Position numbers and translations under genes: made by a program | Origin: Candidatus Saccharimonadales bacterium | GTDB lineage: Bacteria > Patescibacteriota > Saccharimonadia > Saccharimonadales > UBA10212 | NCBI GenBank assembly: GCA_049521895.1 | Contig: JBEKOJ010000001.1 | Span: forward strand, 554,478-618,477 | Reading direction: 5' to 3' | Length of the DNA: 64,000 nt | In this document: piece after piece, positions 1,886 through 47,957 of the stretch | Numbering within the stretch: position 1 is the first letter of the stretch | Layout: every line of letters starts with the position of its first letter | Notes under the pieces: model-generated | The model's input: the letters and a program-made list of their open reading frames with translations, nothing else | What the model was told of the DNA's origin: nothing | The model's database searches: none

Positions 1886-1896
1886 CTCTTTAGCCA

Positions 1897-32800: not shown

Positions 32801-32821
32801 AATGAAACTTAGGTAAATAAT

Positions 32822-33837: not shown

Positions 33838-33861
33838 TAGGCAGCAGGCTAATAATCTATA

Positions 33862-34414: not shown

Positions 34415-34894
34415 CTATAGGACCTGAATCTTTTTCACGGTGTCCTGCTTGACCTTGGCAAAGCTGATAGTTAGCACGCCATCCTTAAGAACGGCCTCGA
34501 TTTCTTCTTCCTTGACTGGTACCGGCAGCACCAAGCTGCGGCTAAATTCGCCCCAATAACACTCCTGCAAGAAGTAGTTCTCTACGTTTTCTTCTTCACC
34601 AGCATTCAAAGTACCGCGGACCGTAAGTGTGTTATCAGATATACTCACATCCAGCTCACTTTTATTTACACCGGCTACACGGCCCTTGACGATCAGCTTT
34701 TCCTTGGTTTCATAAACGTCAACTGCCAGCTGCCCGGCAACCACCTCCTCTTCATCCCAGTTCTCGGCCTCGGCTACCGGCTGGTCGGCTGCTGCCGGGT
34801 CTACGGCTGTTTCGTCCTCGCTCAAAAACGCGGCGGTGATATCATCGCCCATCAATAAGTCGTCATTTTGTGGCTGTTGGCTGCCTCGAGCCAT
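34415..34894 (-). CDS. Hsp20/alpha-crystallin family small heat shock protein
   Basis: Alpha-crystallin domain VDVYETKEKLIVKGRVAGV ... TLTVRG ... FSRSLVLPVPVKEEEIEAVLKDGVLTISFAKV. Confidence 0.85.
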   Translation of the reverse strand: MARGSQQPQNDDLLMGDDITAAFLSEDETAVDPAAADQPVAEAENWDEEEVVAGQLAVDVYETKEKLIVKGRVAGVNKSELDVSISDNTLTVRGTLNAGEEENVENYFLQECYWGEFSRSLVLPVPVKEEEIEAVLKDGVLTISFAKVKQDTVKKIQVL

Positions 34895-35071
34895 AGCTTA
34901 TCCTCCTTCACCCGCCAAAGCCTAATCTGAATTACAGGCGGGCAAGCCTTTAATTATTTTGTTTTTGCTCGCTTTAAGCTTGCGTCTTTTTGTTGATTTT
35001 AGTATAGCTGAGCTTTGGGTTGACACGCAACATGTTATGCTGCACATTTACAACAGAAGAATTACAACATA

Positions 35072-35091
35072 GGGCTACGCTTAAGCGTAGC
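35072..35091. repeat. perfect 20-bp palindrome GGCTACGCTTAAGCGTAGCC
   Basis: Seen directly in the sequence, immediately upstream of a CATT-repeat element and the four-helix-bundle gene. Confidence 0.6.
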
Positions 35092-35092
35092 C

Positions 35093-35142
35093 ATTTTACA
35101 TTTAGCATTTATCAATTCACAATTGATTTATCATTTTTCAGC
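35093..35142. repeat. CATT-repeat arm upstream of the four-helix-bundle gene; pairs with the AATG arm at 35524-35570
   Basis: CATTTTACATTTAGCATTTATCAATTCACAATTGATTTATCATTTTT; the downstream copy in reverse complement reads ATTTAGCATTTTACATTTAGCGTTTAGCATTGATTG. Confidence 0.5.
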
Positions 35143-35160
35143 ACCGTTTAGAGGAGTTTT

Positions 35161-35523
35161 ATGGCTGGCAACAGTAATCGGTCCCGTGAGCTTGAGCAAA
35201 GAATGATGGATTTTGCCATGGGTGTTATTTTGATAGCCAGAACGGCTCCAAAAACTGTGGATAACCGGGTGATAATAGAGCAAATGATTAAATCTGCTTC
35301 AAGCATTGGCGCTAATTACACGGAAGCTAATAATGCCGCTTCAAGGCAGGACTTTAAAAATAAAGTTTTTATTGCCAAGAAAGAAGCGGCCGAGACCAGA
35401 TATTGGCTCCAGCTTTTTAGGAGAATTAATCCCGATCTTGATGTGAAGAATTTAGTCGCTGAAGCGACTGAGCTTATTTTGATACTTCAGAAGATTGTGA
35501 CCACTTTGCAAAATGGTCAATGA
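35161..35523 (+). CDS. four-helix-bundle protein (TIGR02436 family), second copy
   Basis: IEQMIKSASSIGANYTEANNAASRQDFKNKVFIAKKEAAETRYWLQLF follows the same family pattern as 16639-16998. Confidence 0.7.
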   Translation: MAGNSNRSRELEQRMMDFAMGVILIARTAPKTVDNRVIIEQMIKSASSIGANYTEANNAASRQDFKNKVFIAKKEAAETRYWLQLFRRINPDLDVKNLVAEATELILILQKIVTTLQNGQ

Positions 35524-35570
35524 CCAATCAATGCTAAACGCTAAATGTAAAATGCTAAATACCGCCGAAG
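35524..35570. repeat. AATG-repeat arm between the four-helix-bundle gene and comF
   Basis: CAATCAATGCTAAACGCTAAATGTAAAATGCTAAATACCG. Confidence 0.5.
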
Positions 35571-35577
35571 GTGGTTC

Positions 35578-36276
35578 ATGGTGAGCGTCTTCGAGGCGGT
35601 CATCGGGTGGTTGGCTCCGCCGCAGTGTATCGGCTGCGGTGCCGAAGGCTCGGCTTTCTGTCACTCCTGCTCCACCTCTGAAATCATAGCATTTGGAGAG
35701 CGCTGCGCTTACTGCGGCTCGCTTAGTCCGCGGGCTCAAACTTGTGTGCGCTGCCGGCGTGCGGGCACGCCAAGTTTTGTGTGGATAAGTACCAACCACG
35801 AAGCTATGGCACAAGAACTGGTCCGAGTCTATAAATTCGGCCACCTGCGTGCCGCCGCCGGGCCGCTAGCGGAACTTATGAGCCAAACCTATGTGAAATT
35901 TAATAGTCAACCCTATCGTGGTAGCGCGGGATACTGCGTGGTTCCCCTGCCAACCGCAACTAGCAGAATCCGCCAACGCGGTTTTGGCCACGCCGAACTG
36001 CTGGCGAAAATCATCGCTCAAAATCTTGACATGCCCTATTGCCAGGCGCTCGGACGGCTAGGCCAGACTAGGCAAGTTGGCACCTCCCGCCAGACTCGCT
36101 TAGCCCAACAAGCCGAAAATTATTTCGTACGGCAACCTCACCGCGTTCGCGGGCGCAGCGTACTACTTATAGATGATGTTATGACCACTGGCGGCAGCCT
36201 TATAGCGGCCACCAAAGCCCTGCGCGAGGCTGGTGCTAGTCGCGTGGACGCTCTGGTGTTCGCCAAGCGTCTATAG
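35578..36276 (+). CDS. comF: ComF-family competence protein (double zinc ribbon plus phosphoribosyltransferase domain)
   Basis: N-terminal Cys pairs CIGCG...CHSC...CAYCG...CVRCR and a PRTase motif VLLIDDVMTTGGSL. Confidence 0.75.
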   Translation: MVSVFEAVIGWLAPPQCIGCGAEGSAFCHSCSTSEIIAFGERCAYCGSLSPRAQTCVRCRRAGTPSFVWISTNHEAMAQELVRVYKFGHLRAAAGPLAELMSQTYVKFNSQPYRGSAGYCVVPLPTATSRIRQRGFGHAELLAKIIAQNLDMPYCQALGRLGQTRQVGTSRQTRLAQQAENYFVRQPHRVRGRSVLLIDDVMTTGGSLIAATKALREAGASRVDALVFAKRL

Positions 36277-36280
36277 GCCC

Positions 36281-36318
36281 AGTGTAAATACTTAACAAGT
36301 TAAGTATTTACACTGGCG
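36281..36318. terminator. 38-bp hairpin CCAGTGTAAATACTTAAC-AA-GTTAAGTATTTACACTGG (intrinsic terminator-like; member of a repeated palindrome family)
   Basis: An 18-bp perfect stem 5 bp after the comF stop; the core AAATACTTAACAAGTTAAGTATTT recurs at 56936-56967 and, degenerate, near 15335-15358. Confidence 0.5.
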
Positions 36319-36491
36319 GAGAGGGAGGGATTGCGCTACGCTTGCACGGCACTTGCTTATCGGAATAAATTCCTGCACGCTCGTGCCTGTAGACCCCTCG
36401 CTCCTCATCGGCTTCGCCGCTGACCGCGAGGAACCGAAATCCCCTTCCCGGCAGTGAAAACGCGCCCCCCTAAAGGTAAGCGCGCTTACAC

Positions 36492-36584
36492 TGGCGGAGA
36501 GGGAGGGATTTGAACCCTCGCGGGGACTTGCGCCCCCCTATCGATTTAGCAAACCGACCCCTTCAGCCTCTTGGGTACCTCTCC
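36492..36584 (-). tRNA. tRNA-Ser (anticodon GCU), type II
   Basis: Reverse complement GGAGAGGTACCCAAGAGGCTGAAGGGGTCGGTTTGCTAAATCGATAG...GGGTTCAAATCCCTCCCTCTCCGCCA; anticodon loop TTGCTAA, long variable arm, discriminator G, encoded CCA. Confidence 0.8.
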
Positions 36585-36833
36585 TCGTCGTGGCCTACGC
36601 GCCTGCCTCGTTTTACATTACAGTAAAAGCTTCGGCCTAGCGCTATGCCGCTCCTCTCAATTTTGTAAACGGTCGATGGCCGCCCCGATTTGCAAAATTG
36701 GAAAAGAACGGAGGTAATTATACCGTTTTGTGCGGAGTTGCACAAAACGGAAGAGTAGCGATGATACAAGGCCCCGCTCAATTCGTGCTACTTGATCGCG
36801 CGAATTGCTAGCAGGGTTGATATCAATCGATAC

Positions 36834-36923
36834 GTGGCGGAAGGGGTGGGATTCGAACCCACGGACCCTCTCGGATCACCTGTTTTCAAGACAGGCGCAC
36901 TAGACCAACTATGCGACCCTTCC
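36834..36923 (-). tRNA. tRNA-Ser (anticodon UGA), type II
   Basis: Reverse complement GGAAGGGTCGCATAGTTGGTCTAGTGCGCCTGTCTTGAAAACAGGTGATCCGAGAGGGTCCGTGGGTTCGAATCCCACCCCTTCCGCCA; anticodon loop CTTGAAA. Confidence 0.8.
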
Positions 36924-37022
36924 GGGGCTAAACCGGCTGAAGAACAGTGGTAAGTATAGCAATAAACACCTTGAATGGCCAGATAGTTTTGGCTCAATAA
37001 ATAGGCTACAATAAGCTTAACT

Positions 37023-37556
37023 ATGAAGTCAAAGGATGACACTAATTTATACAAACCCGATGATTCCGATGATACGTCAACTACCACTGGAGCTAAAGGC
37101 TCTACCATCACCTGGACAGCGTCCGAGTACGTCGAGCACCAGCACGGCGTGGGTTGGTATGCCTCACTGGTTGTGGTAACAGTTGCACTTACGGCCGGTA
37201 TCTATTTTATAACCAAAGACTATTTTGCTGCCGGTACCATTATCACGCTTGGTATTATCGTGGCGGTTTTTGCTGGACACCAACCAAGCCAAATTGAATT
37301 TGAACTGTCCGATTCCGGCCTACGCGTCGGCGAAAAAAACTACAGCTATAGCCTCTTCAAGTCCTTCAGTATCTTCAGAGAAGGCAAACTCCCAAGTATT
37401 AACATGGCTCCTATTAAGCGTTTTATGCCACCTATATCGGCCTATTTTGACCCAAAGGACGAGCGAAAAATCGTTGATTTATTGGGCGAACACATACCAT
37501 TTGAACCACGCAATCCAAGTGTAATCGACCGTCTTAGCCAACGCCTCCGCCTCTAG
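37023..37556 (+). CDS. hypothetical membrane protein (two TM helices followed by a small soluble domain)
   Basis: TM pair LVVVTVALTAGIYFI / IITLGIIVAVFAG; no catalytic motifs. Confidence 0.3.
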   Translation: MKSKDDTNLYKPDDSDDTSTTTGAKGSTITWTASEYVEHQHGVGWYASLVVVTVALTAGIYFITKDYFAAGTIITLGIIVAVFAGHQPSQIEFELSDSGLRVGEKNYSYSLFKSFSIFREGKLPSINMAPIKRFMPPISAYFDPKDERKIVDLLGEHIPFEPRNPSVIDRLSQRLRL

Positions 37557-37635
37557 ATCTGATATGCCTCTGCAAACGAAGTTAAGCTTCGATTATAAAG
37601 TATTCTAAAACTATCAATCGGGGTTTTACGGATGT

Positions 37636-38193
37636 TTACTTCAGCGAAAAGGCTGCTGCGGAAGACATAGCAGGATATGAACCTACAAGCAAGGCCTTCA
37701 CTAGCAACAGATTCCAGCCGGGAAAATCATTGAACAAAACTAACCCCATCAGAAGGACAGTTAGCGAGATTGAATAAAGCACTACCACTTTACTGATAAT
37801 GTAGCTAAACGTGCTAGTTTTTGCTTCATGTATAAACGTCTTGTCGTTTTTATATATCAGTAGGCCGACTAACAGGAAAACGAACAAAAGTATCCCGATA
37901 ATATTAATCCAAGGTAGCCTTTTGGCTAAATTTACACTTAAACCTAGCGCTTGCCCTAAGCCGACGCCCAAAAAAGCACCTGCTGTACCGCGTGCCAGTT
38001 CCATAAGGTGTGAGCGTTTAATTGTATAGTTGCCGAGCTTGACCATCGTTTTTTCTATGTAAGCTTCCTGCTTCTCTACTTTGACCAGCTCTTTGTCTTC
38101 TTTCTGGACAATTCTTTCCAGATCTCTCTCAATACCGCCCAGAGCACCAAGTTTCCGGTCTATCCTATCCAGTCTTATGTCGGTTTGACTCAT
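37636..38193 (-). CDS. hypothetical membrane protein with an N-terminal coiled-coil
   Basis: N-terminus rich in charged heptads (RLDRIDRKLGALGGIERDLERIVQKEDKELVKVEKQEAYIEK), then 3-4 TM helices. Confidence 0.3.
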   Translation of the reverse strand: MSQTDIRLDRIDRKLGALGGIERDLERIVQKEDKELVKVEKQEAYIEKTMVKLGNYTIKRSHLMELARGTAGAFLGVGLGQALGLSVNLAKRLPWINIIGILLFVFLLVGLLIYKNDKTFIHEAKTSTFSYIISKVVVLYSISLTVLLMGLVLFNDFPGWNLLLVKALLVGSYPAMSSAAAFSLK

Positions 38194-38252
38194 GAATTTT
38201 TATTTTTTAGAATCCTACGGTCTATATTAGCATAAACACTATAAAAAATCAA

Positions 38253-38329
38253 TGGTACACCCGGCGCGATTCGAACGCACGACCTTTGGCTCCGCAAGCC
38301 AACGCTCTATCCAGCTGAGCTACGGGTGC
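38253..38329 (-). tRNA. tRNA-Arg-like (anticodon read as GCG; needs verification)
   Basis: Reverse complement GCACCCGTAGCTCAGCTGGATAGAGCGTTGGCTTGCGGAGCCAAAGGTCGTGCGTTCGAATCGCGCCGGGTGTACCA; anticodon stem TTGGC/GCCAA with loop TTGCGGA. Confidence 0.6.
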
Positions 38330-38512
38330 TCGTCGGAGCCTGCGTTTCTGCCTCGCTTTGCCTGTTGGCAAAAGCTTCGGCCTAAAGCTATGCTCCTCCT
38401 CTCGAATTTTCAGACGGTGATTAGCCCCCCGCTTTGAAAATTTGGGAGAAACGGAAAAGAACAGGGGTAATTATAACACTTACACCTCTGATAATCCAGG
38501 GGCCAAACCGAC

Positions 38513-39631
38513 CTATTGGATTTTGATAGTGCGGTGCGGTTTTGGTGTAGCTGTGGTTCTGGGCGTGGTCGCAGTATATTCGGCCGGACTAGCCGGCGGT
38601 AGGTTACTCTCAGCAGCCGCAGCCAACTGACGTTTCTGGTTTCCCCGGCCTATAAACATTGAACTTCCAATGGCCGCGGTTCCAAGAACGACATAACCAC
38701 CGCCAAACCACCAGTAGCTTTTATCAACCGCCTGCTCCACGTCTACTAATAAAGTTCGTAAACTGCTCTGTAGTACGGCGTTATTGACCGATATTTTTGG
38801 CGCCAAAGTGTGAGCTGTAACTCGGTTAACAGCCCAGGCAAAAACTAGCAATACTATACCGATAGCCAGTAGTGGCCAGCCAACGCGCCTTAAGCCGGCG
38901 CGCCTAGTCGAACTCAGAAGGATAATAGCCAGCCCCACCAGCACGGTGATTATACCTAAAACTAGCGGCGTTTTCTTAACTTGTCTGTATCTGTTGGGTG
39001 CACTCTTGAGCTGGTCGGCAAACACCGATTGGTTGCTATTACCGCTCTTTATGCTTGTAGCTGTAATGATCGGGTTATCTAAAAATCCTTGCCCACCCAA
39101 GATACTGGTCTGTAAAGTGGAAGCTGCACTGGCAGCACTGATACCTTTAGGCAGGCAAGTTGCGCTGAGAGGGTCAAAATTATCAGCGCTAACAGAGGCG
39201 CTGCAAGCTGGCAGGCTAGACAACTGCTGCTGTACTAATTGTGCCGCATTACTGGCAAAAGTCGTTTTGGCGCTTGTCAGATCAATTTGGAAGTCCGGCA
39301 ACGGCGTCATGCCATTCAGCCAATCGTATATACCATCTATCGTGGCCTCAGTATTCTGTTGCACAAATTGCGGCGTAAAGGTATCAACCGCTGCCGTCCT
39401 AATAGTGCTATTGTTAAGTGAAACATTCTCTCCTCCGCCTGTAATTTGCTTGGATTGATCCAAAAGGCCTGGGACTACAGTGTTGTAGACGCCACTGTTT
39501 GCTAAGATATGCTTGATGGTCGCCGGGTGGGTGCCGATACGTATAAAGCCCACATCAATGGCTATAATGTAGAGCAGTATTACAAAAATTGGGGCTAATA
39601 ATATCAGCAAAAGTTTTCTCACAAGCCGCAT
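38513..39631 (-). CDS. hypothetical membrane protein
   Basis: N-terminal TM (LLLILLAPIFVILLYIIAI), a Ser/Ala/Thr-rich extracytoplasmic region with Cys residues, two C-terminal TM helices and a Pro/Thr-rich tail. Confidence 0.3.
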   Translation of the reverse strand: MRLVRKLLLILLAPIFVILLYIIAIDVGFIRIGTHPATIKHILANSGVYNTVVPGLLDQSKQITGGGENVSLNNSTIRTAAVDTFTPQFVQQNTEATIDGIYDWLNGMTPLPDFQIDLTSAKTTFASNAAQLVQQQLSSLPACSASVSADNFDPLSATCLPKGISAASAASTLQTSILGGQGFLDNPIITATSIKSGNSNQSVFADQLKSAPNRYRQVKKTPLVLGIITVLVGLAIILLSSTRRAGLRRVGWPLLAIGIVLLVFAWAVNRVTAHTLAPKISVNNAVLQSSLRTLLVDVEQAVDKSYWWFGGGYVVLGTAAIGSSMFIGRGNQKRQLAAAAESNLPPASPAEYTATTPRTTATPKPHRTIKIQ

Positions 39632-39639
39632 ACGCTTAT

Positions 39640-40165
39640 TGTACCAGAAGTTTGGCTATGCTACCCCTTGCATTGTTATTGACCTTCTGCAAAAAGTTCC
39701 ACTTTCTGAGTGGCGGCCCTCGTGGTACGCGGTACGAGGTCCGGCGAGTGGTGGAAGCTCGGTGCGTTGCTTAAGTAGACAACTTAGGCAGTGCTCGCTG
39801 ATGTACCGATCGCCTACCCGGTCGCGTGGACCTGGGTGTACCGCTAGATACCTCGGTTGAGCCAAATCAAGCGCAAGTTGTGCGCCGACTCTTACGCACT
39901 CTTGTGTCATTCATCAAAGTGCCTACGAAGGTCGGGCCGGGTGTCCGCTCGCCCGTCCGGTCGCGTCGAGTCGGCTGTATCGCCAATAAGCATGAATAGG
40001 CGAGTTTTGTGATTTAAGGGCGGGGACTGTCTGAGCTCTTCGCTCTTACGAAGAACTTCGACCCGGCGTACGAGGAACCGAGTAGAGCCGCTCAGCTGCT
40101 GCTCGGCGGGTCAGAGCGTTGAACTTCTCGACGGCAGCGCGATTGAGCTCTCTGTATTTGTCGCC
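39640..40165. other. GC-rich non-coding block of atypical composition (possible element remnant or structured RNA)
   Basis: About 520 bp that is visibly richer in G/C than its surroundings; only short overlapping ORFs on both strands. Confidence 0.3.
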
Positions 40166-40168
40166 GCC

Positions 40169-40564
40169 GTGCTTAGCTGCCAGAAAAGAGATTATGTGCT
40201 TAGGGCCAAATGGCTTGAAAATCACGTCGGCAGAGTTGAGACCAACAGATATAATAGACTCATGAGAATCTTCGGAATACGAGTGGTACGCTTGCTAAAA
40301 GAGTCGCCAGCAGGTGTGCGCGGCGATTTAAGCATAAGACATTTTCATAATGGCAAGATTGCAACCAAAGCAAAAGTTGGCACCGAGCTTCACAGAGATA
40401 CTAATACGTGGCAACACAGAGAACGATATATTGACATGCTTCATCAATATGATAAACATTCGTACAATGAAAAAATTATCAATCCAACAACTGGTGATTA
40501 CATGGAAAAGGATGAGGTCTACGCAGACCACAGAAAATCCAAAGGCCGAAAGCGCACTCAGTAA
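40169..40564 (+). CDS. hypothetical protein (possible degenerate HNH-like C-terminus)
   Basis: The C-terminus EVYADHRKSKGRKRTQ weakly resembles the start of an HNH motif (EVDHIiPkSkGG) but is cut by a stop; otherwise no motifs. Confidence 0.2.
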   Translation: MLSCQKRDYVLRAKWLENHVGRVETNRYNRLMRIFGIRVVRLLKESPAGVRGDLSIRHFHNGKIATKAKVGTELHRDTNTWQHRERYIDMLHQYDKHSYNEKIINPTTGDYMEKDEVYADHRKSKGRKRTQ

Positions 40565-40818
40565 CTAATTGGATACTGAACTACACACATAATTCGTCCG
40601 GCTTCCACTTGAGAAGCTGTAGTTGCTGGAGGTAGAACAATAGGTGCTTCACCAGAGCTGTATAGCGAACCTACCGTTTGTAAACACTCCTTTTGTGCAA
40701 GCTTGATGTGGTTAGTCCGTTGTATCAAGTAGAACTTAGCGCCCGTAAATACTAAAGCAACAGTTAATATCGTTACCCAAAGCATAACCACAATTGTTCG
40801 TTTCATCCCCTCGCCCAT
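40558..40818 (-). CDS. hypothetical small membrane protein
   Basis: 86 aa with one N-terminal TM helix (TIVVMLWVTILTVALVFTGAKFYLI). Confidence 0.2.
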   Translation of the reverse strand: MGEGMKRTIVVMLWVTILTVALVFTGAKFYLIQRTNHIKLAQKECLQTVGSLYSSGEAPIVLPPATTASQVEAGRIMCVVQYPISY

Positions 40819-40966
40819 AACACCTCCTTAATCTGCAAATATTATAACGCATTCAATCTACTTGCTATGAAGAGATAGTCGCCAATTAGCTTCGGGCTTC
40901 TGCCACAGCGCGTACGGGAATCCGGTCCTCCATTTCTTCGTTTGTTCTGGTAAAATAGGTCCCACT

Positions 40967-42730
40967 ATGGAGAGGAATGTAGAAGGAAACACCGGTAAGA
41001 GAGCCATCATCTACCTGCGAGTTTCAACTGCTCGTCAGGCATCTTCAGGTGGCGAAGCTGAGGGTTACTCCATCCCGGCACAACGTGAGGCCTGCCGACG
41101 TAAGGCCACCGAGCTCGGCGCTGACGTCGTAGATGAATACGTTGATGCCGGAGCTAGTGCTCGCTCAGCAGACCGGCCAGCTCTGCAAGCACTCCTAGAC
41201 CGGCTGAATGAGCAGAAAGACGTCGACTATGTCATCGTCCATAAGGTCGACCGTCTAGCCCGGGACCGAGCTGATGATGTCGCTATTGGCCTGACTATCC
41301 ATAAGGCCGGAGCGGTGCTCGTTTCAGCCTCGGAGCAGATTGACGACACGCCGGCTGGCACGTTGCTACACGGCATCATGGCGGCGATTGCCGAGTTCTA
41401 CTCCAAGAACCTGAGCCATGAGACTAAGAAAGGTCTGCATGAGAAGGCCAAGCGTGGCGGTACGCCTGGCTATGCACCACTCGGCTATCTGAACAGCACG
41501 ACCAGGGTTGATGGCAAAGAAGTCAAGGCCGTGGACCTTGACCCAGAGCGAGCACCTCATCTGCAGTGGGCCTTTGAGGCTTACGCCTTGGGCGAATGGT
41601 CAATCACCGACATCGTCGACGAGCTAGCCCGGAGAGGCATGAAGACTCGACCGACTGCAACTAGGCAGGCCATACCGCTGGTTAGAAGCCAAGTCCACCG
41701 CATCCTGAAAAGTCCGTACTACACCGGACGGCTGCCGTACCGAGGCGTTGAGTACGACGGCAAGCACCCGGCTCTGATTGACGATGAGACCTGGCAGCGA
41801 GTACAGGATGTGCTCGACGGTCGACGAATCTCGGGTGACCGCTCTTGGAAGCACGAGCACTACTTGAAGGGCACTGTTTTCTGTGCCAGATGCGACTCAC
41901 GTCTAGCTATGACCTACGCCAAAGGCCGTGGCGGTACCTACCAATACTTCTACTGCCTCGGCAGAGCTAAGAAGCGCACTGGTTGCGACCTGCCGTATCT
42001 GTTGGCTGAAAAAGTCGAGGAGCAAGTCATTGACCACTGGCGCTCGCGGAAACTGGCATCTGACCTGGTCGAACTGGTCCGCGATGTGGCTCGTGAAGAA
42101 CTGGCGGAGCAAAAATCCAAGGACAAGCAGCTGCTGGTGACCCAACGCCGGCGCTTACAGCGCCTTGAAGCTAAGCGCCAGAAGCTGATTGATGCTTATC
42201 TAGCCGAAGCTATCCCGATCGCTGACCTGAAGAAGCGGCAAGAAGCCATCGCTGTTGAGCAGCGAGATGCTGAACGCCTCATTGAGCTAGCCAACGTCAA
42301 CCACGCCTTGATCGAAGAGCGACTGGAGATTGCACTCAATCTGCTCGAGCACTGTGACCGGCTGTACATAGGAGCTAATGAGGCAGGCAGACGAGCAGCC
42401 AATCAGGCTTTCTTCGCCGCGCTGTACATGGACACTGCAGGCGTTGTTAGGGCGGAGCTCAACCCGCCGTTTGCTGAGCTCGTCGATAGAAGCATTGGTC
42501 TGGTCGACGATGACGACGACGGGCCGGAGGACGACCCAGACGGACCCGAACCCCTGGACTGGCCTAGGGAGGCCACAGGGGCGACCAGGGCGACCGTCCT
42601 GGCCTCGGCGAAGACAAACCCCCTGGCCGAGGGGTCAGGGGGTTCGGACGTCAAACTTTTGGCGGAAGGGGTGGGATTCGAACCCACGGTGCACTTGCGT
42701 GCACACCTGTTTTCGAGACAAGCCAGTTAA
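40967..42730 (+). CDS. large serine recombinase (resolvase/invertase-type catalytic domain plus recombinase domain and zinc ribbon)
   Basis: AIIYLRVSTARQ holds the catalytic Ser; there is a central recombinase domain, a Cys cluster CARCDSRL...YFYCLGRAKKRTGC, a coiled-coil QRRRLQRLEAKRQKLIDAY and an acidic tail; composition is high-GC relative to neighbours; the ORF has no stop before it runs antisense through tRNA-Ser(CGA) at 42660-42749, so the true C-terminus is uncertain. Confidence 0.8.
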   Translation: MERNVEGNTGKRAIIYLRVSTARQASSGGEAEGYSIPAQREACRRKATELGADVVDEYVDAGASARSADRPALQALLDRLNEQKDVDYVIVHKVDRLARDRADDVAIGLTIHKAGAVLVSASEQIDDTPAGTLLHGIMAAIAEFYSKNLSHETKKGLHEKAKRGGTPGYAPLGYLNSTTRVDGKEVKAVDLDPERAPHLQWAFEAYALGEWSITDIVDELARRGMKTRPTATRQAIPLVRSQVHRILKSPYYTGRLPYRGVEYDGKHPALIDDETWQRVQDVLDGRRISGDRSWKHEHYLKGTVFCARCDSRLAMTYAKGRGGTYQYFYCLGRAKKRTGCDLPYLLAEKVEEQVIDHWRSRKLASDLVELVRDVAREELAEQKSKDKQLLVTQRRRLQRLEAKRQKLIDAYLAEAIPIADLKKRQEAIAVEQRDAERLIELANVNHALIEERLEIALNLLEHCDRLYIGANEAGRRAANQAFFAALYMDTAGVVRAELNPPFAELVDRSIGLVDDDDDGPEDDPDGPEPLDWPREATGATRATVLASAKTNPLAEGSGGSDVKLLAEGVGFEPTVHLRAHLFSRQAS

Positions 42731-42749
42731 ACCACTCCTGCACCCTTCC
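42660..42749 (-). tRNA. tRNA-Ser (anticodon CGA), type II
   Basis: Reverse complement GGAAGGGTGCAGGAGTGGTTTAACTGGCTTGTCTCGAAAACAGGTGTGCACGCAAGTGCACCGTGGGTTCGAATCCCACCCCTTCCGCCA; anticodon loop CTCGAAA; a TATAAT box 12 nt upstream. Confidence 0.8.
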
Positions 42750-42981
42750 GTAACAGAGGTAATTATAGCCTACTTTTATTACTATTTTGCTATTATTAAT
42801 CTATGGGTTTGGGATTAATCAGCTTTCTCTTTACGTTAGGCGCGGGTACTTGGATTTATACTAAACTCCAGCGCTACAATGGCAACAATACCAAACAGTC
42901 GGTTATAGCCGCCGCCGTAGCCGCAGTTATCATTTTCTTAATTATGTTTTCTATTCTAAGTTTGATTATCAAAAAATAACC

Positions 42982-43380
42982 ATGGTTGAAAGCGTCTTCA
43001 CCAAAATTATCAAGGGCGAAATCCCCTGCCACAAGATCTACGAAGACGAAAAAACTATGGCTTTTATGGAAATTCGGCCGATTCAGCCGGGACACGTCCT
43101 GGTTATTACAAAAAAGCAACTTCACATCTGGGATCTGCCAGATGAAGAATATCAGGCGCTTATGAAAACGGTTAAAAAAGTTGCCGATCGTATCAGCGAG
43201 ATCCTAAAACCTAGAAGGGTTGGTATACAAGTCGTTGGGCTTCACGTTCCTGATCATGCCCACGTTCATGTTTTTCCCTTTAATTCGATGGAAGAATATC
43301 GCCATGACCCAGACTCCGATGATCCAGACCATGCAGCCCTGGCTGAAATGGCCGCAAAGCTTCGCTTTGGCAACAAGTAA
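42982..43380 (+). CDS. HIT-family (histidine triad) nucleotide hydrolase
   Basis: HVPDHAHVHVFP is the HxHxHxx HIT motif; 132 aa. Confidence 0.8.
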   Translation: MVESVFTKIIKGEIPCHKIYEDEKTMAFMEIRPIQPGHVLVITKKQLHIWDLPDEEYQALMKTVKKVADRISEILKPRRVGIQVVGLHVPDHAHVHVFPFNSMEEYRHDPDSDDPDHAALAEMAAKLRFGNK

Positions 43381-43679
43381 AGAGTAACTGGAAACTAGTT
43401 AAGCCACTAGCCTTACAATGCCAATTCCTTGTTACTAGTTCCTAGTTTCTGGTATCATATGGCTATATGCCCGGTAGTAGACTTTCGAGCCAGCTCGCCA
43501 CCCATGTAGGTTATTATTCGACACTGGAACCTAGCATACATTACCGGTATACAGATAAAGAGGGCTTGCCTGACGAGCTGGAGCTTCAAGGATATGTCGA
43601 ATAATCTCGAAAGCTCACTACCGGGTATGAGGTGGAGAGTTGAGAGTTGTTACTATTGCGAGAGTCAGCTCAACTCTCT

Positions 43680-43780
43680 AATGAACAAATGCGACAAATG
43701 TTCAATGTTCAATGAATGTAGCAATGGCCAATGGCCCAATGCATTGTCCATTCGTCCATTTGTCCATTCGTTCATTGCCT
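43680..43780. repeat. AATG/CATT-pentamer hairpin element (5' of the HTH-HAD gene)
   Basis: AATGAACAAATGCGACAAATGTTCAATGTTCAATGAATGTAGCAATGGCCAATGGCCCAATGCATTGTCCATTCGTCCATTTGTCCATTCGTTCATTG. Confidence 0.6.
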
Positions 43781-43795
43781 CCGTAGGAGGCGCCC

Positions 43796-44644
43796 ATGGA
43801 TGAAAAGACCTTAGGCCACAAACTTCAATTGGCCCGTAAGCAGGCCGGCCTGACGCAGCAACAGCTCTGCCAAAAAGCTGGCCTTTCCTACTCTACGCTG
43901 GCCAAAATTGAGCGTGGCGCTATTCGTTCCCCATCTGTTTTTACGGTCGCATCAATCGCTTCTGCCACTGGTGTTCCTCTGACAGACCTGCTGGGTACGA
44001 ATGTACATAGCTCCCCAGCCCTGACGCCCGCTAAAAAGCGCTCCAAAAACGGCGTCACTTTTGTTTATTTTGACGTCAATGGTACCTTGGTGTGTTTTTT
44101 TCATAGAGCCTTTACCGAAATTGCCCGGGCTTGCGGCCAGCAACCCGACTTTGTGGAAACGCTTTACTGGCGCTACAACGATGGTATCGTCAGGGGTGAC
44201 ATGAGCCTGGAGAAGTTCAATGCCGCGCTTGGCAAAGAACTGGGGTTAGATGATTTTGACTGGCAAAAATACTATATGGCCAATGTCGAGCCGGTACCTG
44301 GAGTAGAAGAGTTTGTCGAGTGGGCGGCACAGCACTACGAGGTTGGTCTAATTAGCAATAACATGCCTGGGTTTATAGATGAAATGATCCACAACAAAAT
44401 TGTTCCTGATGTGAAATACACAGTAGCCATCGATTCCTCAAAAGTTGGAATCATCAAACCCGAGGCCAAAATTTACGAGCTGGGCCAGGAGATGGCCGCC
44501 GTAGAGCCTCGTGAAATCCTGCTGATAGACAACGAACGACCCAACCTAATAGCGGCTGACCGCGCCGGCTGGCAAGTAATTTGGTTTGACGACCTTGACC
44601 CCGAAGACAGCATTGAACGCGCCAAAGCGGCCCTAGAGTTCTAG
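43796..44644 (+). CDS. XRE-family HTH domain fused to a HAD-superfamily hydrolase domain
   Basis: N-terminal LGHKLQLARKQAGLTQQQLCQKAGLSYSTLAKIERG (XRE HTH); HAD motif I FDVNGTL, motif III-like SSKVGIIKPE and a terminal acidic DD. Confidence 0.6.
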   Translation: MDEKTLGHKLQLARKQAGLTQQQLCQKAGLSYSTLAKIERGAIRSPSVFTVASIASATGVPLTDLLGTNVHSSPALTPAKKRSKNGVTFVYFDVNGTLVCFFHRAFTEIARACGQQPDFVETLYWRYNDGIVRGDMSLEKFNAALGKELGLDDFDWQKYYMANVEPVPGVEEFVEWAAQHYEVGLISNNMPGFIDEMIHNKIVPDVKYTVAIDSSKVGIIKPEAKIYELGQEMAAVEPREILLIDNERPNLIAADRAGWQVIWFDDLDPEDSIERAKAALEF

Positions 44645-47586
44645 AGATTTTGTAGGATTTTTTGTAATTGCTCTATTTTTTGCCCGGCTTCTGCTAGGTC
44701 TTTCTCGGTTTGTTCAATCAATTCTTTCGGTGCCTTCTCTTTGTATCCAGGCTTCTTCAGGCGCGCACTAAGGGCACTCTCTCCGGTTTGTGCCTCTTTG
44801 AGCTTTACCTCCAAACTGACTTTTGCTTCGGTCGCATCCACATCCAGCCGGCAGTCAAGATTAACAGAGATTAACCGCAAGCCACCGGCATAACCAGGCG
44901 GCAGCTCTTTAATTTCTTTCAGGCCGGCTAGCTTCGCCACCAATTTGGAATTTGCTGTCATATCGGGGGCAGGTTGGTGGTAGAGCGTATCTGCTCTAAT
45001 GCCGCTCATAGCTTTTAGCCAGCGCACCTCGGTGATTGTCAATTTAAGGCCTTCAAATTTGTTAGCTTCGGTCTTGTCAGAGTCAATAATCTTCGGCCAC
45101 TGCTCGCTGATCAGCATAGTGTCATGCCAGCCCAACTGCTGCCAGACGGTCTCAGTCACAAATGGTGCGAACGGATGGGCTAGTTTTAGTGTTTGATCAA
45201 GCACATAAGCTAATACTGAAACGTTTGGAACAGTTTTGCTGGCCTCTACGTACCAGTCGGCTAGATCGTCCCACACAAAATGATAAAGCGCACTGTAAGC
45301 CTCGCCGAATTTAAAGTTGCCTAAGTCGGCGGAAATCTCTTTTGCGGAAATACTTAACTTGTTAAGTATCCAATGGTCAACCGGACTTTTTGGCTCCGCC
45401 TCACCCCTGTAATCTTCGCCAACGACCCCCTCAATGTAGCGGGCGATGTTCCATAGTTTGTTGCAGAAATTGCGGTTGGCGACAATTCTGGCCAGACCTA
45501 AACGCTGATCATTCCCTGCCCCGGTACCACTAATTACCGCCAGTCTCAACGCATCTGTGCCATATTGCTTGATCACGTCCAGCGGATCAATGATCGTATC
45601 AGGGTCGCTTTTGCTCATTTTTTTGCCAGTTTCGGTGCGCACCAAACCGTGTAAGTAAACCGTTCTAAACGGTATCTGGCCTGTCACATAGGTGGTAGCC
45701 AAAATCATCCGGGCTACCCAAAAGAATAAAATGTCATATGCAGTCTCTAAGACATCTGTTGGATGATAGCTTTTAAAGTCAACGCTGCGCTCTAAGAGAT
45801 CTTCCAAAGACAAGGAGTAATCTTCGGCAAGTTTGGGATCAATCAGCGTGCTCCAGGTCCACAAGGCCGAGGAAAACCAGGTATCCAGTGTGTCCGGATC
45901 CTGTTTCCACCCCTGCCCTTCCGGAGGCAGTACTCCAACGTAAATTTCGTCCTCTATTTCCTTAGGCTCAAAATCGTACTCATAAACCCAAATCGGGTAG
46001 TCCAAGTCCATCTGCCTTTCGGGATGATACTTTTTTAACGCGGCAATCAGTTCACTGGGGTCCTTATAGACCACAAAGTGGGCTTTATCGGCAAGATCAA
46101 CCTTTTCCACTGTAGTTTTTTGGACACTTTTGATAGTAATTTCGCCAAAAACTATTCCGGTCTGGCTATTTTCAACCAGAATTTTATCACCTGGCTTATA
46201 GCCGTAATCCTTTTGTCGATAGGTTTTAGTCTTACCATTAAGCATTTGGTTCATAACAGTTTGGTCAAAACCCATTACTGGCTGGTTGGTCTTTTTGTAC
46301 CACACTGGTATCTGGTGCCCCCACCAAATCTGCCGGCTTATACACCAGTCACGCAAGTTGTCTATCCAGTGATAGTAAATTTTCTCAAAGCGCTTGGGAA
46401 TAATCTTGATATCGCCATCTTCTACCACGGTGCGCATAACTTCGCGGAATGAGCGCATCTGGCCCTTCCACTCCATAGCCGGCCGGTTAACATCCACAAA
46501 CCACTGCAGCATTATCTGTGGCTCAATAACCCCTTGGCCACGACTGTTCAGGGCGATGCTGTGGCTATAATTTTCATCAACATCCACCAATAAACCTTTG
46601 GCCTTCAGCTTCTTGACGATTTTCGGACGGGCCTCCTCGATACCCATGCCGGCAAACTCGCCGGCTATAGGTAGCAATTTACCCTTATAATCTATAATTT
46701 GCTCCCGCTCTAAACCGTGGCGCTCCGCGATCTCAAAATCAGTGCGATCGTGCCATGGTGTGATGGTCATCACCCCTGTTCCAAACTCCGGATCAACAGC
46801 CTCATCTTTAACGACAGTAGCTGTTACTGTACCGTTAAGCCACTCAGTCTCAAAAGTCTGGCCATCACTATAATGCTTGTAGCGCTTATCTTCGGGGTGT
46901 ACCACCACGTATTTATCGCCAAATTTTGTTTCCGGGCGGGCAGTACTTATCTGGAAAGGGCCGTATTGCAAAGTGTAAAGCGGAGCCTTTTCTTCTTTAT
47001 AATCCACTTCATCGTCAGACACAGTAGTTTCCAGGTTAGGGTCCCAGTTTACAATACGATGACCCCTGTAAATCAGTCCGTCTTTGTACATCTTTGTGAA
47101 GACTTCGTTAACCGAGCGGCTTAGCGAATCGTCTAGAGTGTAACGGAAGCGACTCCAGTCGCAGCTGGCCCCCATGGCCCGCATCTGCGATATCATGGTT
47201 TCTCGGTTACTGCCCGCGAACTCCTTGACTTTGGCGATAAAGGCCTCGCGGCCGATCTGGTGTTTGTCGGTCCCCTGCTCTACTAGCTGTCTTTCAACCA
47301 CGGCGTTGGTGGCAATGGCGGCGTGATCGGTACCGGGCAGCCAAAGTGCATCTTTACCCTGCTGGCGGGCGTGCCGGATCATAATATCTTGTAGGGTTAG
47401 GAAAAGCGCTCCTCCCATATGCAACGTGGAGGTCTCGTTGGGTGGTGGCATGCTGATAGAAAAATGCGGTTTAGGACTGTTGGGATCGGCCTTAAAGGCC
47501 CCGCTCTTCTCCCATCTGGTATAGATGCCAGCTTCATATTCGGTAGGATTGTAGGTTTTAGGCAGTTTCATCCCATTAAACCTCAA
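44641..47586 (-). CDS. valS: valine--tRNA ligase
   Basis: PPPNETSTLHMGGALF (HIGH-type), KMSKSDPD (KMSKS), a C-terminal coiled-coil; 981 aa; the real start is probably MKLPKTYNP. Confidence 0.85.
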   Translation of the reverse strand: MRFNGMKLPKTYNPTEYEAGIYTRWEKSGAFKADPNSPKPHFSISMPPPNETSTLHMGGALFLTLQDIMIRHARQQGKDALWLPGTDHAAIATNAVVERQLVEQGTDKHQIGREAFIAKVKEFAGSNRETMISQMRAMGASCDWSRFRYTLDDSLSRSVNEVFTKMYKDGLIYRGHRIVNWDPNLETTVSDDEVDYKEEKAPLYTLQYGPFQISTARPETKFGDKYVVVHPEDKRYKHYSDGQTFETEWLNGTVTATVVKDEAVDPEFGTGVMTITPWHDRTDFEIAERHGLEREQIIDYKGKLLPIAGEFAGMGIEEARPKIVKKLKAKGLLVDVDENYSHSIALNSRGQGVIEPQIMLQWFVDVNRPAMEWKGQMRSFREVMRTVVEDGDIKIIPKRFEKIYYHWIDNLRDWCISRQIWWGHQIPVWYKKTNQPVMGFDQTVMNQMLNGKTKTYRQKDYGYKPGDKILVENSQTGIVFGEITIKSVQKTTVEKVDLADKAHFVVYKDPSELIAALKKYHPERQMDLDYPIWVYEYDFEPKEIEDEIYVGVLPPEGQGWKQDPDTLDTWFSSALWTWSTLIDPKLAEDYSLSLEDLLERSVDFKSYHPTDVLETAYDILFFWVARMILATTYVTGQIPFRTVYLHGLVRTETGKKMSKSDPDTIIDPLDVIKQYGTDALRLAVISGTGAGNDQRLGLARIVANRNFCNKLWNIARYIEGVVGEDYRGEAEPKSPVDHWILNKLSISAKEISADLGNFKFGEAYSALYHFVWDDLADWYVEASKTVPNVSVLAYVLDQTLKLAHPFAPFVTETVWQQLGWHDTMLISEQWPKIIDSDKTEANKFEGLKLTITEVRWLKAMSGIRADTLYHQPAPDMTANSKLVAKLAGLKEIKELPPGYAGGLRLISVNLDCRLDVDATEAKVSLEVKLKEAQTGESALSARLKKPGYKEKAPKELIEQTEKDLAEAGQKIEQLQKILQNL

Positions 47587-47957
47587 AGACTTTCATTGTT
47601 GATTGATATGACGAAGCGGGCAGGCGATTCAAGACGCCATTGATGGTACGGAAGTTAAGTGAGGTTCTAACGGGATTCATAAATGCTAACAGCATTATAA
47701 CAGAGGTGGATATATAAAGACCATCGCCTCTGTTATTTGACTGGTTTCACGTGAAATTGGGCAACATTCAACAAATCTTTTCACCTGAAAAGACTTCTCA
47801 AAAAACGCCCAATACTGGCTTTTGTTTTCTTGCCCCGCATTAAATCCTGAGCGGAGTAGTCTGCAATCAGACTACGAAGCTTCAAGATTTTGGTACTGGG
47901 GTACCGCCCGTTTTTGTTTTCAATCTAAGCTTAACAACTATGTGTGATGCAAGCAAG

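Follow-up and report, generated by a model that had tools for sequence, protein, structure and literature searches.

Does the large serine recombinase gene that runs antisense into tRNA-Ser(CGA) in this Candidatus Saccharimonadales contig belong to an integrative element, and if so, where did the element come from and what does the overlap with the tRNA mean? The 64,000-nucleotide stretch of DNA that we analysed (the window) had been read in a first-pass annotation as holding the remnant of an integrated element of foreign origin. We consider it likely that window positions 39717-42665 are a complete, minimal integrative element, which inserted by recombination of attachment (att) sites, swaps the tail of its recombinase in doing so and comes from a family of Actinomycetota.

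A precisely bounded insertion at the 3′ end of tRNA-Ser(CGA)

A contig from a sister strain, L006, aligns to window positions 33001-39716 and 42660-49000, with 6 mismatched bases over 13 kb (99.95% identity of the flanks). It lacks 39717-42665, which makes the feature an insertion of 2,949 bp with precise bounds. The left and right flank alignments share exactly six bases, TGGCGG, and the join in L006 holds one copy of them. In the filled site they form a direct repeat, with the left copy (attL core) at 39711-39716, as located by the overlap of the L006 alignments, and the right copy (attR core) at 42660-42665, as located by empty-site comparison. The inserted body between them, 39717-42659, has 54.2% GC and measures 2,949 bp counting one core copy. 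The tRNA-Ser(CGA) gene (42660-42749, minus strand) is intact (ARAGORN; Rfam, 52 bits) and has the same sequence in filled and empty sites, and the 6-bp repeat is the antisense of its CCGCCA-3′ end. Integration at the tRNA gene, as the first-pass annotation had proposed, is thus borne out by an insertion exactly at the tRNA 3′ end, and the repeat of that end anticipated at the far boundary is present, although it is merely 6 bp long.

The presence/absence polymorphism for which that annotation had suggested looking at related genomes is real: among contigs that encode an identical HIT protein, about 17 have the filled site and 4 (L006 and three similar contigs) the empty one. The filled copies are all 100% identical across the 10-16 kb of window sequence compared.

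Tyrosine-integrase islands usually integrate at tRNA genes and are bounded by long tRNA repeats. What had been called the usual geometry is that of such islands; here the enzyme is a serine recombinase, the repeat has 6 bp and the run of the ORF into the tRNA is characteristic of this recombinase family. A classical tyrosine-integrase tRNA island or prophage was excluded, as the sole recombinase is serine-type and the far-boundary repeat is TGGCGG, not tens of bp.

Architecture and family of the recombinase

In the integrated state the large serine recombinase (LSR) ORF spans 40967-42730 on the plus strand and encodes 587 residues with matches in Pfam and the PDB. As first noted, it has no stop before tRNA-Ser(CGA): the antisense overlap is 71 nt and covers the 3′ half of the tRNA, with the last 23 codons being host tRNA antisense (…LAEGVGFEPTVHLRAHLFSRQAS). 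The protein has the Resolvase, Recombinase and Zn_ribbon_recom domains that make up the LSR architecture: the resolvase-type catalytic domain PF00239 matches residues 13-165 (E = 4.8e-36), and PF07508 (Recombinase; E = 1.9e-14) and PF13408 (zinc ribbon; E = 1.2e-10) are also found. Matches in the PDB are the catalytic domain of TP901-1 (E = 7.6e-15) and, for residues 243-468, the A118 integrase (4KIS). R18, S20, T21 and Q24, which include the catalytic R-x-S-T motif, are invariant across 26 homologs, and C306, C309, C330 and C340 are invariant in the homolog alignment. The long helices at 361-467 are the sole confident part of the AF2 model, and the excised-form protein, modelled by AlphaFold without an alignment, gave a poor pLDDT of 42, with the tail uninformative. 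Past residue ~510 the linker is low-complexity and variable in the alignment. An IS607-like or small serine recombinase transposon was excluded by the length of 587 aa, the Recombinase and zinc-ribbon domains and the specific tRNA 3′-end targets.

The three-domain architecture with a long coiled-coil region is shared with the A118/LI, TP901-1, Bxb1 and phiC31 integrases, and identity to any integrase among 50,697 phage and 72,556 plasmid records is at most ~30%. Among GTDB species representatives, 547 relatives were found by a scan; 79 loci were analysed. The relatives form a large, uncharacterised clade, mostly from Actinomycetota. The ORF enters the 3′ end of a minus-strand tRNA or tmRNA in about 60 of the 79 loci, and the T-arm is read as G[FL]EP, always in the same frame, in all 57 that could be scored.

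Attachment sites and a proposed mechanism of insertion

We propose that the LSR would recombine attP with attB. In the circular form, attP would span the 3′ end of the ORF for the LSR itself; attB would be made up of the last ~25 nt of tRNA-Ser(CGA) and ~20 nt downstream. Strand exchange would take place within the 4-6 bp core (T)GGCGG. In L008-L010 attL reads aGCGG and attR TGGCGG, leaving a shared core of 4 bp; the crossover probably lies inside GCGG, with GG as the central dinucleotide. Such a short core with no long homology resembles those of phage serine integrases.

The arms around the core can be assigned in the window. The host side of attL, the B arm (39696-39716, minus strand; from the terminator scan and the empty-site sequence), carries the motif GTTCCACT at 39696-39703 on the plus strand, and the terminator scan places the native terminator-like hairpin of tRNA-Ser(CGA) at 39699-39713, followed by a T-run. 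The B′ arm is the tRNA acceptor and T-arm, in which the T-loop antisense ATTCGAAC (42676-42683) gives the half-site motif. The P arm (42617-42649, minus strand), also located by the terminator scan, has its half-site motif GTTCGGAC at 42642-42649, overlapped by a GC-rich hairpin at 42617-42644 that lies 15 nt past the tRNA end on the tRNA strand and is followed by TTTGTCTT. By its position and fold this hairpin looks like a putative element-supplied terminator for the tRNA. Comparable hairpins with other stem sequences occur in most loci and fold below shuffles in 53 of 66; the P-arm hairpin and the GGTTCnAAC spacing are invariant family-wide. Insertion would accordingly restore the tRNA exactly, move the native terminator to attL and bring in a replacement hairpin from the element.

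GTTCnAAC-type motifs are found in the P, P′ and B′ arms and, with a 6/8 match seen in one empty site, in the B arm, at 11.5-16.5 bp from the inferred centre; P′ arms were found in 10 elements. Each half-site would then bear a GTTCnAAC-like motif, the tRNA side supplying it as the universally conserved T-loop. Its distance from the crossover would be 4-5 bp greater in the arms of attP than in those of attB, in line with the model for the A118/LI integrase, whose half-site motifs are likewise farther out in attP than in attB.

An alternative C-terminal tail of the recombinase

The P′ arm doubles as an alternative last "exon" of the recombinase (39713-39778, plus strand), identified by reconstruction, with its stop codon TAG at 39776-39778. 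In the reconstructed circular form the int ORF crosses the core and ends …GEWWKLGALLK; the integrated form ends …GFEPTVHLRAHLFSRQAS. Because the int ORF spans attP, integration swaps the last 21 residues (…AALVVRGTRSGEWWKLGALLK) for residues encoded by the tRNA antisense, and the predicted recombinase isoforms therefore differ between the free and the integrated element. Neither tail ends …AA as ssrA-like degradation tags do (…LLK or …QAS instead).

It is possible, though in our judgement unlikely, that the ORF enters the tRNA by a geometric accident without biological meaning, the functional protein ending around residue 510-565 and both tails being translated junk. The integrated-state tails stop at arbitrary points (they overlap the tRNA by 35 to >300 nt) and are conserved solely where the tRNA is, the linker that precedes them varies as described above, and the protein motif "NP…GSNV…LAE…GFEP" is largely explained by the constraints that hairpin, half-site motif and tRNA place on the DNA. 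Against this, the single frame of the 57 scored loci holds over more than 10 tRNA target types and varying linker lengths. The alternative tail peptide is kept in L007, L008, L009, L010 and L087, and L015, L018, L011 and L012 have tails related to it; it extends beyond the usual ~25-bp half-site. There, codons of the GEWWKLGKLL tail turn over synonymously (Leu as CTC, CTG, CTT or CTA; Gly as GGC, GGT or GGG) while the amino acids are kept: each of the 15 pairs has a lower pN than pS (L008 vs L009: pS 0.44, pN 0.04), and variable sites by codon position number 5/8/12. In the integrated state this frame is closed by a stop codon directly upstream of the tail. This pattern of substitution indicates that the excised-form tail is under purifying selection.

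A tail exchanged upon insertion is part of the reading that we favour. That the placement of attP within the int ORF acts as a molecular switch, and that the T-loop half-site lets such elements shuttle between Actinomycetota and Saccharibacteria, is a more tentative idea, which we regard as doubtful at present.

Contents and integrity of the element

Besides the LSR gene and a GC-rich block at its left end, the element holds small cargo ORFs, two or three in number. The cargo ORF at 40262-40564 (plus strand) encodes 100 aa, or 131 aa if GTG 40169 is the start, has no Pfam family and is accompanied by a sigma-70-like site at 40227-40255; NCBI lists its product, from a Candidatus Saccharimonadales MAG, as a hypothetical protein, and no homolog was found in related elements. 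The ORF at 40558-40818 (minus strand), of 86 aa, likewise lacks a Pfam family; its product is hydrophobic in an N-terminal stretch. The left end also carries two plus-strand copies of a family-specific tandem DNA motif of the GTCCGnTCGnnnGTCCGnTCGCGTCGAG type, detected by repeat search and alignments: copy 1 at 39803-39831, matching L007 3536-3565, and copy 2, the better match, at 39942-39971, with GGGGACTGT ~55 nt further on. Fourteen copies of this motif are present in 13 related loci, all on the recombinase strand and upstream of int; RNAalifold found no structure in it and Rfam no match.

Neither Pfam nor comparison with related elements revealed a replication, transfer, excisionase or directionality-factor gene in the element. 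This is one reason to ask whether it is an immobilised remnant, that is, an Actinomycetota-type integrative and conjugative element (AICE-like) or small island which, after a single integration, was stripped of the functions for transfer, replication and directionality and persists as dead cargo, an old insertion segregating among strains. A relative, L086 (74% identical, 78% in the core; host 72% GC), does carry TraB/FtsK-like (faint Pfam hits to TrwB/T4SS-DNA_transf), Replic_Relax, HTH_17 and ImmA genes, and the complete identity of the filled copies over the 10-16 kb compared would also suit a single integration. The P′ motif of the window element is degenerate as well: GTACGAGG agrees with the clade consensus GTTGGAAC at 4/8 positions (6/8 in L007), and its reverse complement matches P at 5/8 (7/8 in L007). 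The weak motif also turns an otherwise conserved Asn of the tail into Arg, and it may mean reduced mobility.

Other evidence makes this explanation improbable. The recombinase ORF is intact and keeps every family-invariant residue; both junctions are intact, as is the ORF of the alternative tail, whose stop codon has kept its conserved place; and confirmed relatives are similarly small, at 3.5-7.8 kb, those in Actinomycetota measuring 3.6-7.8 kb. Filled and empty strains differ by only the 6 SNPs in 13 kb of flank. The sister element in L007, with an LSR 90% identical and a P′ arm 88% identical, sits in a different tRNA, tRNA-Ser(GCT), with different cargo, which implies recent transposition in this host group. 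The earlier description as a remnant therefore holds for the missing transfer and replication genes and the weakened P′ motif, but not for the junctions, the recombinase and the alternative C-terminal exon: the element is minimal but structurally complete, not debris, with a somewhat degenerate P′ arm.

Composition and origin

The element-borne part of the recombinase gene has 58.2% GC, against a mean of 47.3% (sd 3.0; z = 3.6) for same-size windows outside the element and 47.5% for the whole window. Its GC and its GC3 (0.63) top all 38 long ORFs, and in tetranucleotide distance no segment is farther from the rest of the window than the 2,949-nt element (0.346; median 0.188). The composition is thus not uniform, and the recombinase gene is GC-richer than its surroundings, as first reported. 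The GC-rich non-coding block is likewise real (449 nt, 58.6% GC, in the top 0.2% of windows that size), but it spans 39717-40165 rather than 39640-40165, 39640-39716 being host DNA. Nor does it lie just upstream of the recombinase: the AT-richer segment 40166-40966 (43.2% GC), which holds the small ORFs, intervenes. The middle third of the element is host-like in GC. The flanks, described as AT-rich membrane-protein genes, have 45-48% GC, about the window average, and on the right the nearest gene that Pfam recognises encodes a HIT-family protein, not a membrane protein.

A mis-joining of Actinomycetota DNA into a Saccharibacteria contig during assembly or binning, which the sharp jump in composition and the wholly metagenomic data might suggest, is effectively refuted by junctions that recur identically in at least 12 independent ENA, JGI and NCBI assemblies on contigs of up to 770 kb, by the base-exact insertion at the tRNA end with its 6-bp repeat, by the host-like GC of the middle third and by the matching architecture in isolate genomes of Nocardia, Nocardioides and Rhodoglobus.

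Saccharibacteria are known to have their hosts in the phylum Actinomycetota. The suspected foreign origin is supported: the recombinase is Actinomycetota-type and its closest named relatives are in that phylum. In neighbour-joining trees, Saccharibacteria LSR copies are nested polyphyletically among Actinomycetota copies, with identity of up to 93%: one is sister to Salinibacterium (93% identity, bootstrap 96), one to Nocardia (bootstrap 100) and one to Nocardioides (81% identity; bootstrap 80 for the pair and 100 for the clade with Aeromicrobium). Host labels of MAGs depend on binning and are backed by flank GC, several isolate genomes and long contigs. The LSR has lower GC than the host in most Actinomycetota loci and higher GC than the host in most Saccharibacteria loci with usable flanks. 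The high-GC donor first suggested needs qualifying: the family itself, at ~55-65% GC, is poorer in GC than the Actinomycetota and richer than the Saccharibacteria that carry it. Polyphyletic nesting together with GC above that of Saccharibacteria hosts indicates repeated cross-phylum transfer. The element family would be native to Actinomycetota, the presumed route of transfer leading into Saccharibacteria on several occasions, and the window copy would represent a sub-lineage now moving among Saccharimonadales tRNA-Ser genes.

Relation to known systems

Phage serine integrases differ from this system in that their target is a protein-coding gene instead of a tRNA 3′ end; attP lies inside the integrase ORF here, and no directionality factor is identifiable. 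A known parallel to an att site within an ORF is integration-dependent immunity in mycobacteriophages, reportedly described by Broussard et al. in 2013. In that system attP lies in the repressor gene and integration alters the C-terminus of its product (PMC8092301). C-termini thus differ between free and integrated forms in both cases, but the mycobacteriophages use a tyrosine integrase, and the repressor is switched by removal of an ssrA-like tag, whereas in the present element it is the gene of the serine recombinase that is switched.

Integration of serine-recombinase elements into tRNA genes has precedents. According to Ghinet et al. 2011 (PMC3218068), serine-recombinase AICEs of Mycobacterium integrate in tRNA-Leu, and Mageeney et al. 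2020 (PMC7192596) list S-Int islands in t(m)RNA genes. LSR-driven integration into a tRNA gene is common to these and the window element; the former are described from Actinomycetota, and the host here is a Saccharibacterium. The …GGSN…LAVAEGFEPP tail recurs in a homolog from Mycobacterium riyadhense (P0112) with 55% identity. The window element is not an AICE, which PMC3218068 defines by an integrase, a replication gene and an FtsK/SpoIIIE-type transfer gene, because it has no rep or tra genes. The same two papers cite small serine recombinases of the phiRSM type that integrate at tRNA-Ser; that enzyme, from a filamentous phage of Ralstonia, is resolvase-like, without the Recombinase and zinc-ribbon domains, and is related to the window LSR in nothing beyond the catalytic domain. 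The searched passages of PMC3218068 and PMC7192596 do not describe the overlap of ORF and att site, the T-loop half-site or the tail switch. They treat tRNA-gene cases as rare or unproven, with a figure of 14 of 297 S-Int islands and the remark that "experimental proof will be required"; tRNA targeting by serine integrases is the defining habit of the present clade, which numbers hundreds of members in GTDB species representatives.

Implications

The recognition logic of this clade, a half-site formed by the T-loop, is readable from the sequences. If the tail switch operates, the free form would carry the conserved W-N-K-G-E-W-W-K-L-G-K-L-L peptide and the integrated form a tRNA-antisense tail, and isoforms differing in activity, stability or directionality would give a built-in control of integration and excision without a directionality factor. 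Serine integrases are widely used in genome engineering, and an attP inside int, together with an alternative C-terminus under selection, suggests a novel mode of regulation for them. The 2.9-kb self-contained module, for which each tRNA-Ser gene offers a defined attB, is a candidate genetic tool for a phylum that is hard to manipulate. The nested copies with their foreign composition offer concrete, datable DNA flow between epibionts and their host phylum, and could help to predict the hosts of uncultured Saccharibacteria. Were the shuttling between the two phyla to hold as well, these compact elements would mark host-epibiont pairs and offer a ready-made tool for integration into Saccharibacteria.

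Extent and composition of the element

The open reading frame at 40967-42730 (plus strand, 587 aa) has Resolvase, Recombinase and Zn_ribbon_recom domains, which as predicted from sequence is the architecture of a large serine recombinase (LSR): its N-terminal domain matches TP901-1 integrase, and residues 243-468 match A118 integrase. ARAGORN and Rfam place tRNA-Ser(CGA) on the minus strand at 42660-42749, and the LSR frame crosses the 3' half of this gene antisense over 71 nt before reaching a stop. The element-borne part of the LSR gene has a GC content of 58.2% (z = 3.6 relative to windows of its size elsewhere), compared with a window average of 47.5%, and the gene has the highest GC3 among the 38 long ORFs of the window. 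The GC-rich recombinase running antisense into tRNA-Ser(CGA) that the first-pass annotation described is therefore real. The annotation also placed a GC-rich non-coding block from 39640 directly upstream of the recombinase. This block in fact starts at 39717 (39717-40165, 58.6% GC) and is not adjacent, as a stretch of only 43.2% GC (40166-40966) intervenes.

We looked up contigs that encode an identical HIT protein, the gene for which lies just downstream of the element. The identical recombinase was found on 11 ENA contigs, all with the same context, and the HIT-protein lookup returned filled sites, an empty site (L006, JGI 3300017931) and three similar contigs. L006 aligns to window positions 33001-39716 and 42660-49000 with 6 mismatches in 13 kb, and its two flank alignments overlap by exactly TGGCGG: the insertion is thus 2,949 bp (39717-42665) with a 6-bp direct repeat on each side. 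The repeat is the 3'-terminal CCGCCA of tRNA-Ser(CGA), which is identical in filled and empty sites. The comparison with a sister genome lacking the segment, as had been proposed, also shows presence/absence polymorphism. The short direct repeat expected at the far boundary exists, at 6 bp, and is visible through the empty-site comparison only. There is no long repeat of the tRNA 3' end: the sole long match, in tRNA-Ser(TGA) at 36835-36864, is ordinary paralogy. Windowed GC and tetranucleotide analysis showed that composition is not uniform, with the largest tetranucleotide distance in the window belonging to the 2,949-nt segment. The host-like GC of the element's middle third suggests that cargo was gained after entry into Saccharibacteria.

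We considered whether the GC-rich block is a structured RNA or a pseudogene and dropped both. It has no Rfam match at gathering or E<=1 thresholds, and RNAalifold gave neither a supported structure for the motif conserved within it nor covariation around that motif. In tblastn searches of the small ORFs (59, 84, 86 and 131 aa) against related elements, there were no significant homologs except for the 84-aa frame, whose match with the closest sister element, L007, merely follows DNA conservation.

The conserved motif is a DNA motif in tandem that reads GTCCGnTCGnnnGTCCGnTCGCGTCGAG, with GGGGACTG about 55 nt farther on (window 39803-39831 and 39942-39971). Thirteen related elements of Saccharibacteria and of different Actinomycetota classes conserve it (L007-L012, L015, L026, L031, L054, L065, L083 and L085), in every case on the strand of the recombinase gene and in the interval from the left end to that gene. 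It may serve as an operator, as an accessory binding site or as an origin.

Host and genomic surroundings

Candidatus Saccharimonadales is the NCBI label of the identical HIT protein and likewise of the 100-aa ORF of the element, and the flanking genes have their best matches on Saccharibacteria-labelled contigs. An array of T4SS-pilin paralogs and contigs of up to about 770 kb fit the Saccharimonadales assignment. The array (window about 31163-34293; 197-3327 of comparison contig L001) comprises seven small paralogous genes with T4SS_pilin/TrbC Pfam matches and adjoins a TrbL-like gene. Downstream of it are an HSP20 gene and a match to a '23S rRNA intervening sequence protein' at about 35161-35523.

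In the empty site, tRNA-Ser(CGA) lies 79 nt upstream of a co-directional 372-aa membrane-protein gene (38513-39631; interval 39632-39716). The insertion places 2.9 kb and a predicted terminator before this gene, which could change its expression. One 58-kb contig (L003, ENA ERZ27250017 k141_28788) stops 247 nt beyond tRNA-Ser(CGA), and the assembly breaks here, next to the att site, perhaps owing to heterogeneity of strains in the sample, with filled and empty sites both present.

Near tRNA-Ser(GCT), the window holds a 25-nt exact copy of that gene's 3' end and 6-nt flank (TTACACTGGCGGAGAGGGAGGGATT; 36486-36510 and 36308-36332). The partial copy is 178 nt downstream of the true end of the tRNA, across a GC-rich 153-nt spacer, and the same partial copy stands beside the tRNA-Ser(GCT) of L007 (1734-1751). 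Its appearance is that of an old scar left by integration of another type, one with long repeats. Between the spacer and the element there is no significant similarity, and we rejected the spacer as a decayed copy.

Anatomy of the attachment sites

In most loci the element side of attR carries a GC-rich hairpin, whose stems vary in sequence while complementarity is kept; GGTTCnAAC comes next, at a constant distance, and the tRNA end after that. In the window the hairpin is at 42617-42644. Read on the tRNA strand, it lies just beyond CCA, with a T-rich run after it; a terminator scan of the window called it at 42634-42620 and called the tRNA's native terminator at 39713-39699, now at attL. We infer that the element supplies a replacement terminator to a tRNA parted from its own.

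P' arms were located in ten elements. With the T of TGGCGG numbered 0, the motif GTTCnAAC occupies -18 to -11 in the P arm (the element side of attR), 21 to 28 in the P' arm (as its reverse complement) and 16 to 23 in the B' arm, where it is the T-loop; in the B arm a 6/8 match at -15 to -8 was seen in one empty site only. If the centre is set at the last GG of the core, the attP motifs lie 4-5 bp farther out than the attB motifs. The A118/LI integrase model has att-motif spacing of that same geometry, with attP motifs farther out, and the window's family is alike in this respect. In L008-L010 the shared core is only GCGG, which bounds the crossover. The reconstructed attP is …GACGTCAAACTTTTGGCGGCCCTCGTGGTACG… and attB is …CCACTTTCTGAGTGGCGGAAGGGGTGGGATTC…, with ATTCGAAC as the T-loop motif in attB and GTTCGGAC as the P-arm motif. 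The P' motif of the window, GTACGAGG, is weak (4/8 to consensus vs 6/8 in L007; stronger form GTTGGAAC). The protein motif NP…GSNV…LAE…GFEP is largely the translation of the hairpin, GTTCnAAC and tRNA features of the DNA.

The three minus-strand tRNA-Ser genes of the window (GCT, TGA and CGA) share the plus-strand end TGGCGG, and the last 30 nt of tRNA-Ser(TGA) are identical to those of tRNA-Ser(CGA) (42660-42689). The window therefore offers several potential attB sites, one of them occupied.

Targeting of tRNA genes across the family

A scan of GTDB species representatives returned 547 relatives of the LSR. The best 78 of these loci come from Gaiellaceae, Solirubrobacterales, Acidimicrobiia, Nocardia, Nocardioides, Microbacteriaceae and others, and include about ten Saccharibacteria MAGs. 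In searches of phage and plasmid records, no relative exceeded about 30% identity. Of the 79 loci analysed, about 60 have an ORF that continues antisense into the gene for a tRNA or tmRNA. One clade targets all four tRNA-Ser isoacceptors, and other clades target Met, Val, Pro, Ala, Leu, Arg, Glu, Lys and Gln tRNAs and tmRNA; at the only tRNA-Tyr locus the ORF is interrupted. The T-arm is read in the same frame, as G[FL]EP, in 57/57 scorable ORFs, and the same tail is present in proteins of cultured strains (Mycobacterium riyadhense, Rhodoglobus vestalii and Nocardia).

In a Solirubrobacterales MAG, a family member's ORF enters the 3' end of tmRNA rather than a tRNA (L033, 6558-6916), which fits recognition of a T-arm-like structure. 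On one Gaiellaceae contig (JBAWEP010000008.1), two elements, L009 and L010, occupy different tRNA-Ser genes a few kb apart, so several tRNA-Ser sites per genome can be filled simultaneously; their recombinases are about 67-68% identical to the window's.

In the literature searched, PMC3218068 describes only eight such Mycobacterium AICEs, whose serine recombinases sit in tRNA-Leu, and regards targeting of this kind as rare. PMC7192596 assigns 14 of its 297 S-Int islands to t(m)RNA genes and states that proof is needed.

An alternative C-terminal tail

When the LSR ORF is joined through the core to the left end, the reconstruction gives a 586-aa protein ending AALVVRGTRSGEWWKLGALLK, in place of the 587-aa integrated form with its …FSRQAS end. 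The corresponding tail is AALV…GEWW(K/R)L(G/A)xLL… in L007, L087 and L008-L010, AVSVT..WNK..W…LL..L in L015 and L018, and …NLWLQV.RLLDELAR in L011 and L012. Among the six closest elements, the variable sites of the tail are distributed 5/8/12 over the codon positions, its Leu and Gly codons show synonymous turnover, and pN is below pS in 15/15 pairs. In several loci a stop directly upstream of attL shuts the tail frame, so that the tail could be translated from the circular form only. These patterns are good evidence that the free element would encode a recombinase with a selected C-terminal peptide which is replaced on integration. The nearest precedent is the integration-dependent immunity of mycobacteriophages (PMC8092301), in which attP lies inside the repressor gene.

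Automated in-frame tail similarity was too noisy to locate left ends in distant clades, and we therefore claim tail conservation for the tRNA-Ser clade only; apparent matches such as '…TGGSL*' just upstream of the recombinase gene are probably 5'-UTR conservation. AlphaFold2 run on the excised-form protein without an alignment gave a mean pLDDT of 42, with the coiled coil alone confident and the tail uninformative.

Ancestry and transfer between phyla

The top LSR homologs are 63-87% identical and mostly unnamed, and the named ones are from Actinomycetota, which answers the earlier question of the closest taxa. In bootstrapped neighbour-joining trees, Saccharibacteria sequences occupy no fewer than six distinct positions, adjoining Actinomycetota and in one case a Thermomicrobiales MAG. 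The partners of Saccharibacteria recombinases include Salinibacterium (with UBA6040; 93% identity, bootstrap 96), Nocardia (bootstrap 100), Microbacteriaceae (bootstrap 100) and Nocardioides (81% identity; bootstrap 80 for the pair and 100 for the clade with Aeromicrobium). GC is lower in the recombinase gene than in the host at most Actinomycetota loci (e.g. L009, 0.57 vs 0.67); at most Saccharibacteria loci with usable flanks it is higher (0.58/0.475 in the window; 0.61/0.47, 0.63/0.45 and 0.67/0.40 elsewhere).

The window LSR groups first with that of L007 (90%) and then with those of L086 (78%) and L087. L007 is inserted in tRNA-Ser(GCT) and carries other cargo, namely T5orf172 and a 249-aa ORF; L086 is from a 72% GC host and has transfer and replication genes; and L087 is a GC-rich island of 5.8 kb whose host has 47% GC. 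The elements measure 2.9-7.8 kb; the copy in the window, though the smallest, is in keeping with the style of the family. Sequence comparison indicates that the element is of Actinomycetota ancestry and that cross-phylum transfer has occurred repeatedly in the family. Most of the first-pass reading of a foreign integrated remnant was right, and it can be restated as a precisely bounded serine-recombinase element, of apparent Actinomycetota ancestry, in a Saccharibacteria tRNA-Ser gene.

Mobility and wider meaning

We consider it likely that this is a structurally complete integrative element of its LSR family and, if so, the chance that the window copy can still move unaided is perhaps even. 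In favour of mobility, the enzyme and both arms are intact, the element is polymorphic among near-identical strains, and a recently diverged sister element occupies another site. Against it, the P' motif is weakened, and no gene for directionality, replication or transfer can be recognised in the element. The attP junction and attB/attL were also sought by metagenome scans, which gave zero matches; these carry no weight as negatives, because the attB/attL pattern exists in JGI contigs, which the scanned collection does not hold.

The family shows systematic targeting of tRNA genes by serine integrases, and the code by which sites are recognised, with the T-loop as part of it, can be read from the sequences. 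Its wider value includes the repeated transfer between phyla and an att site placed within the integrase ORF, with an alternative tail that appears to be under selection.
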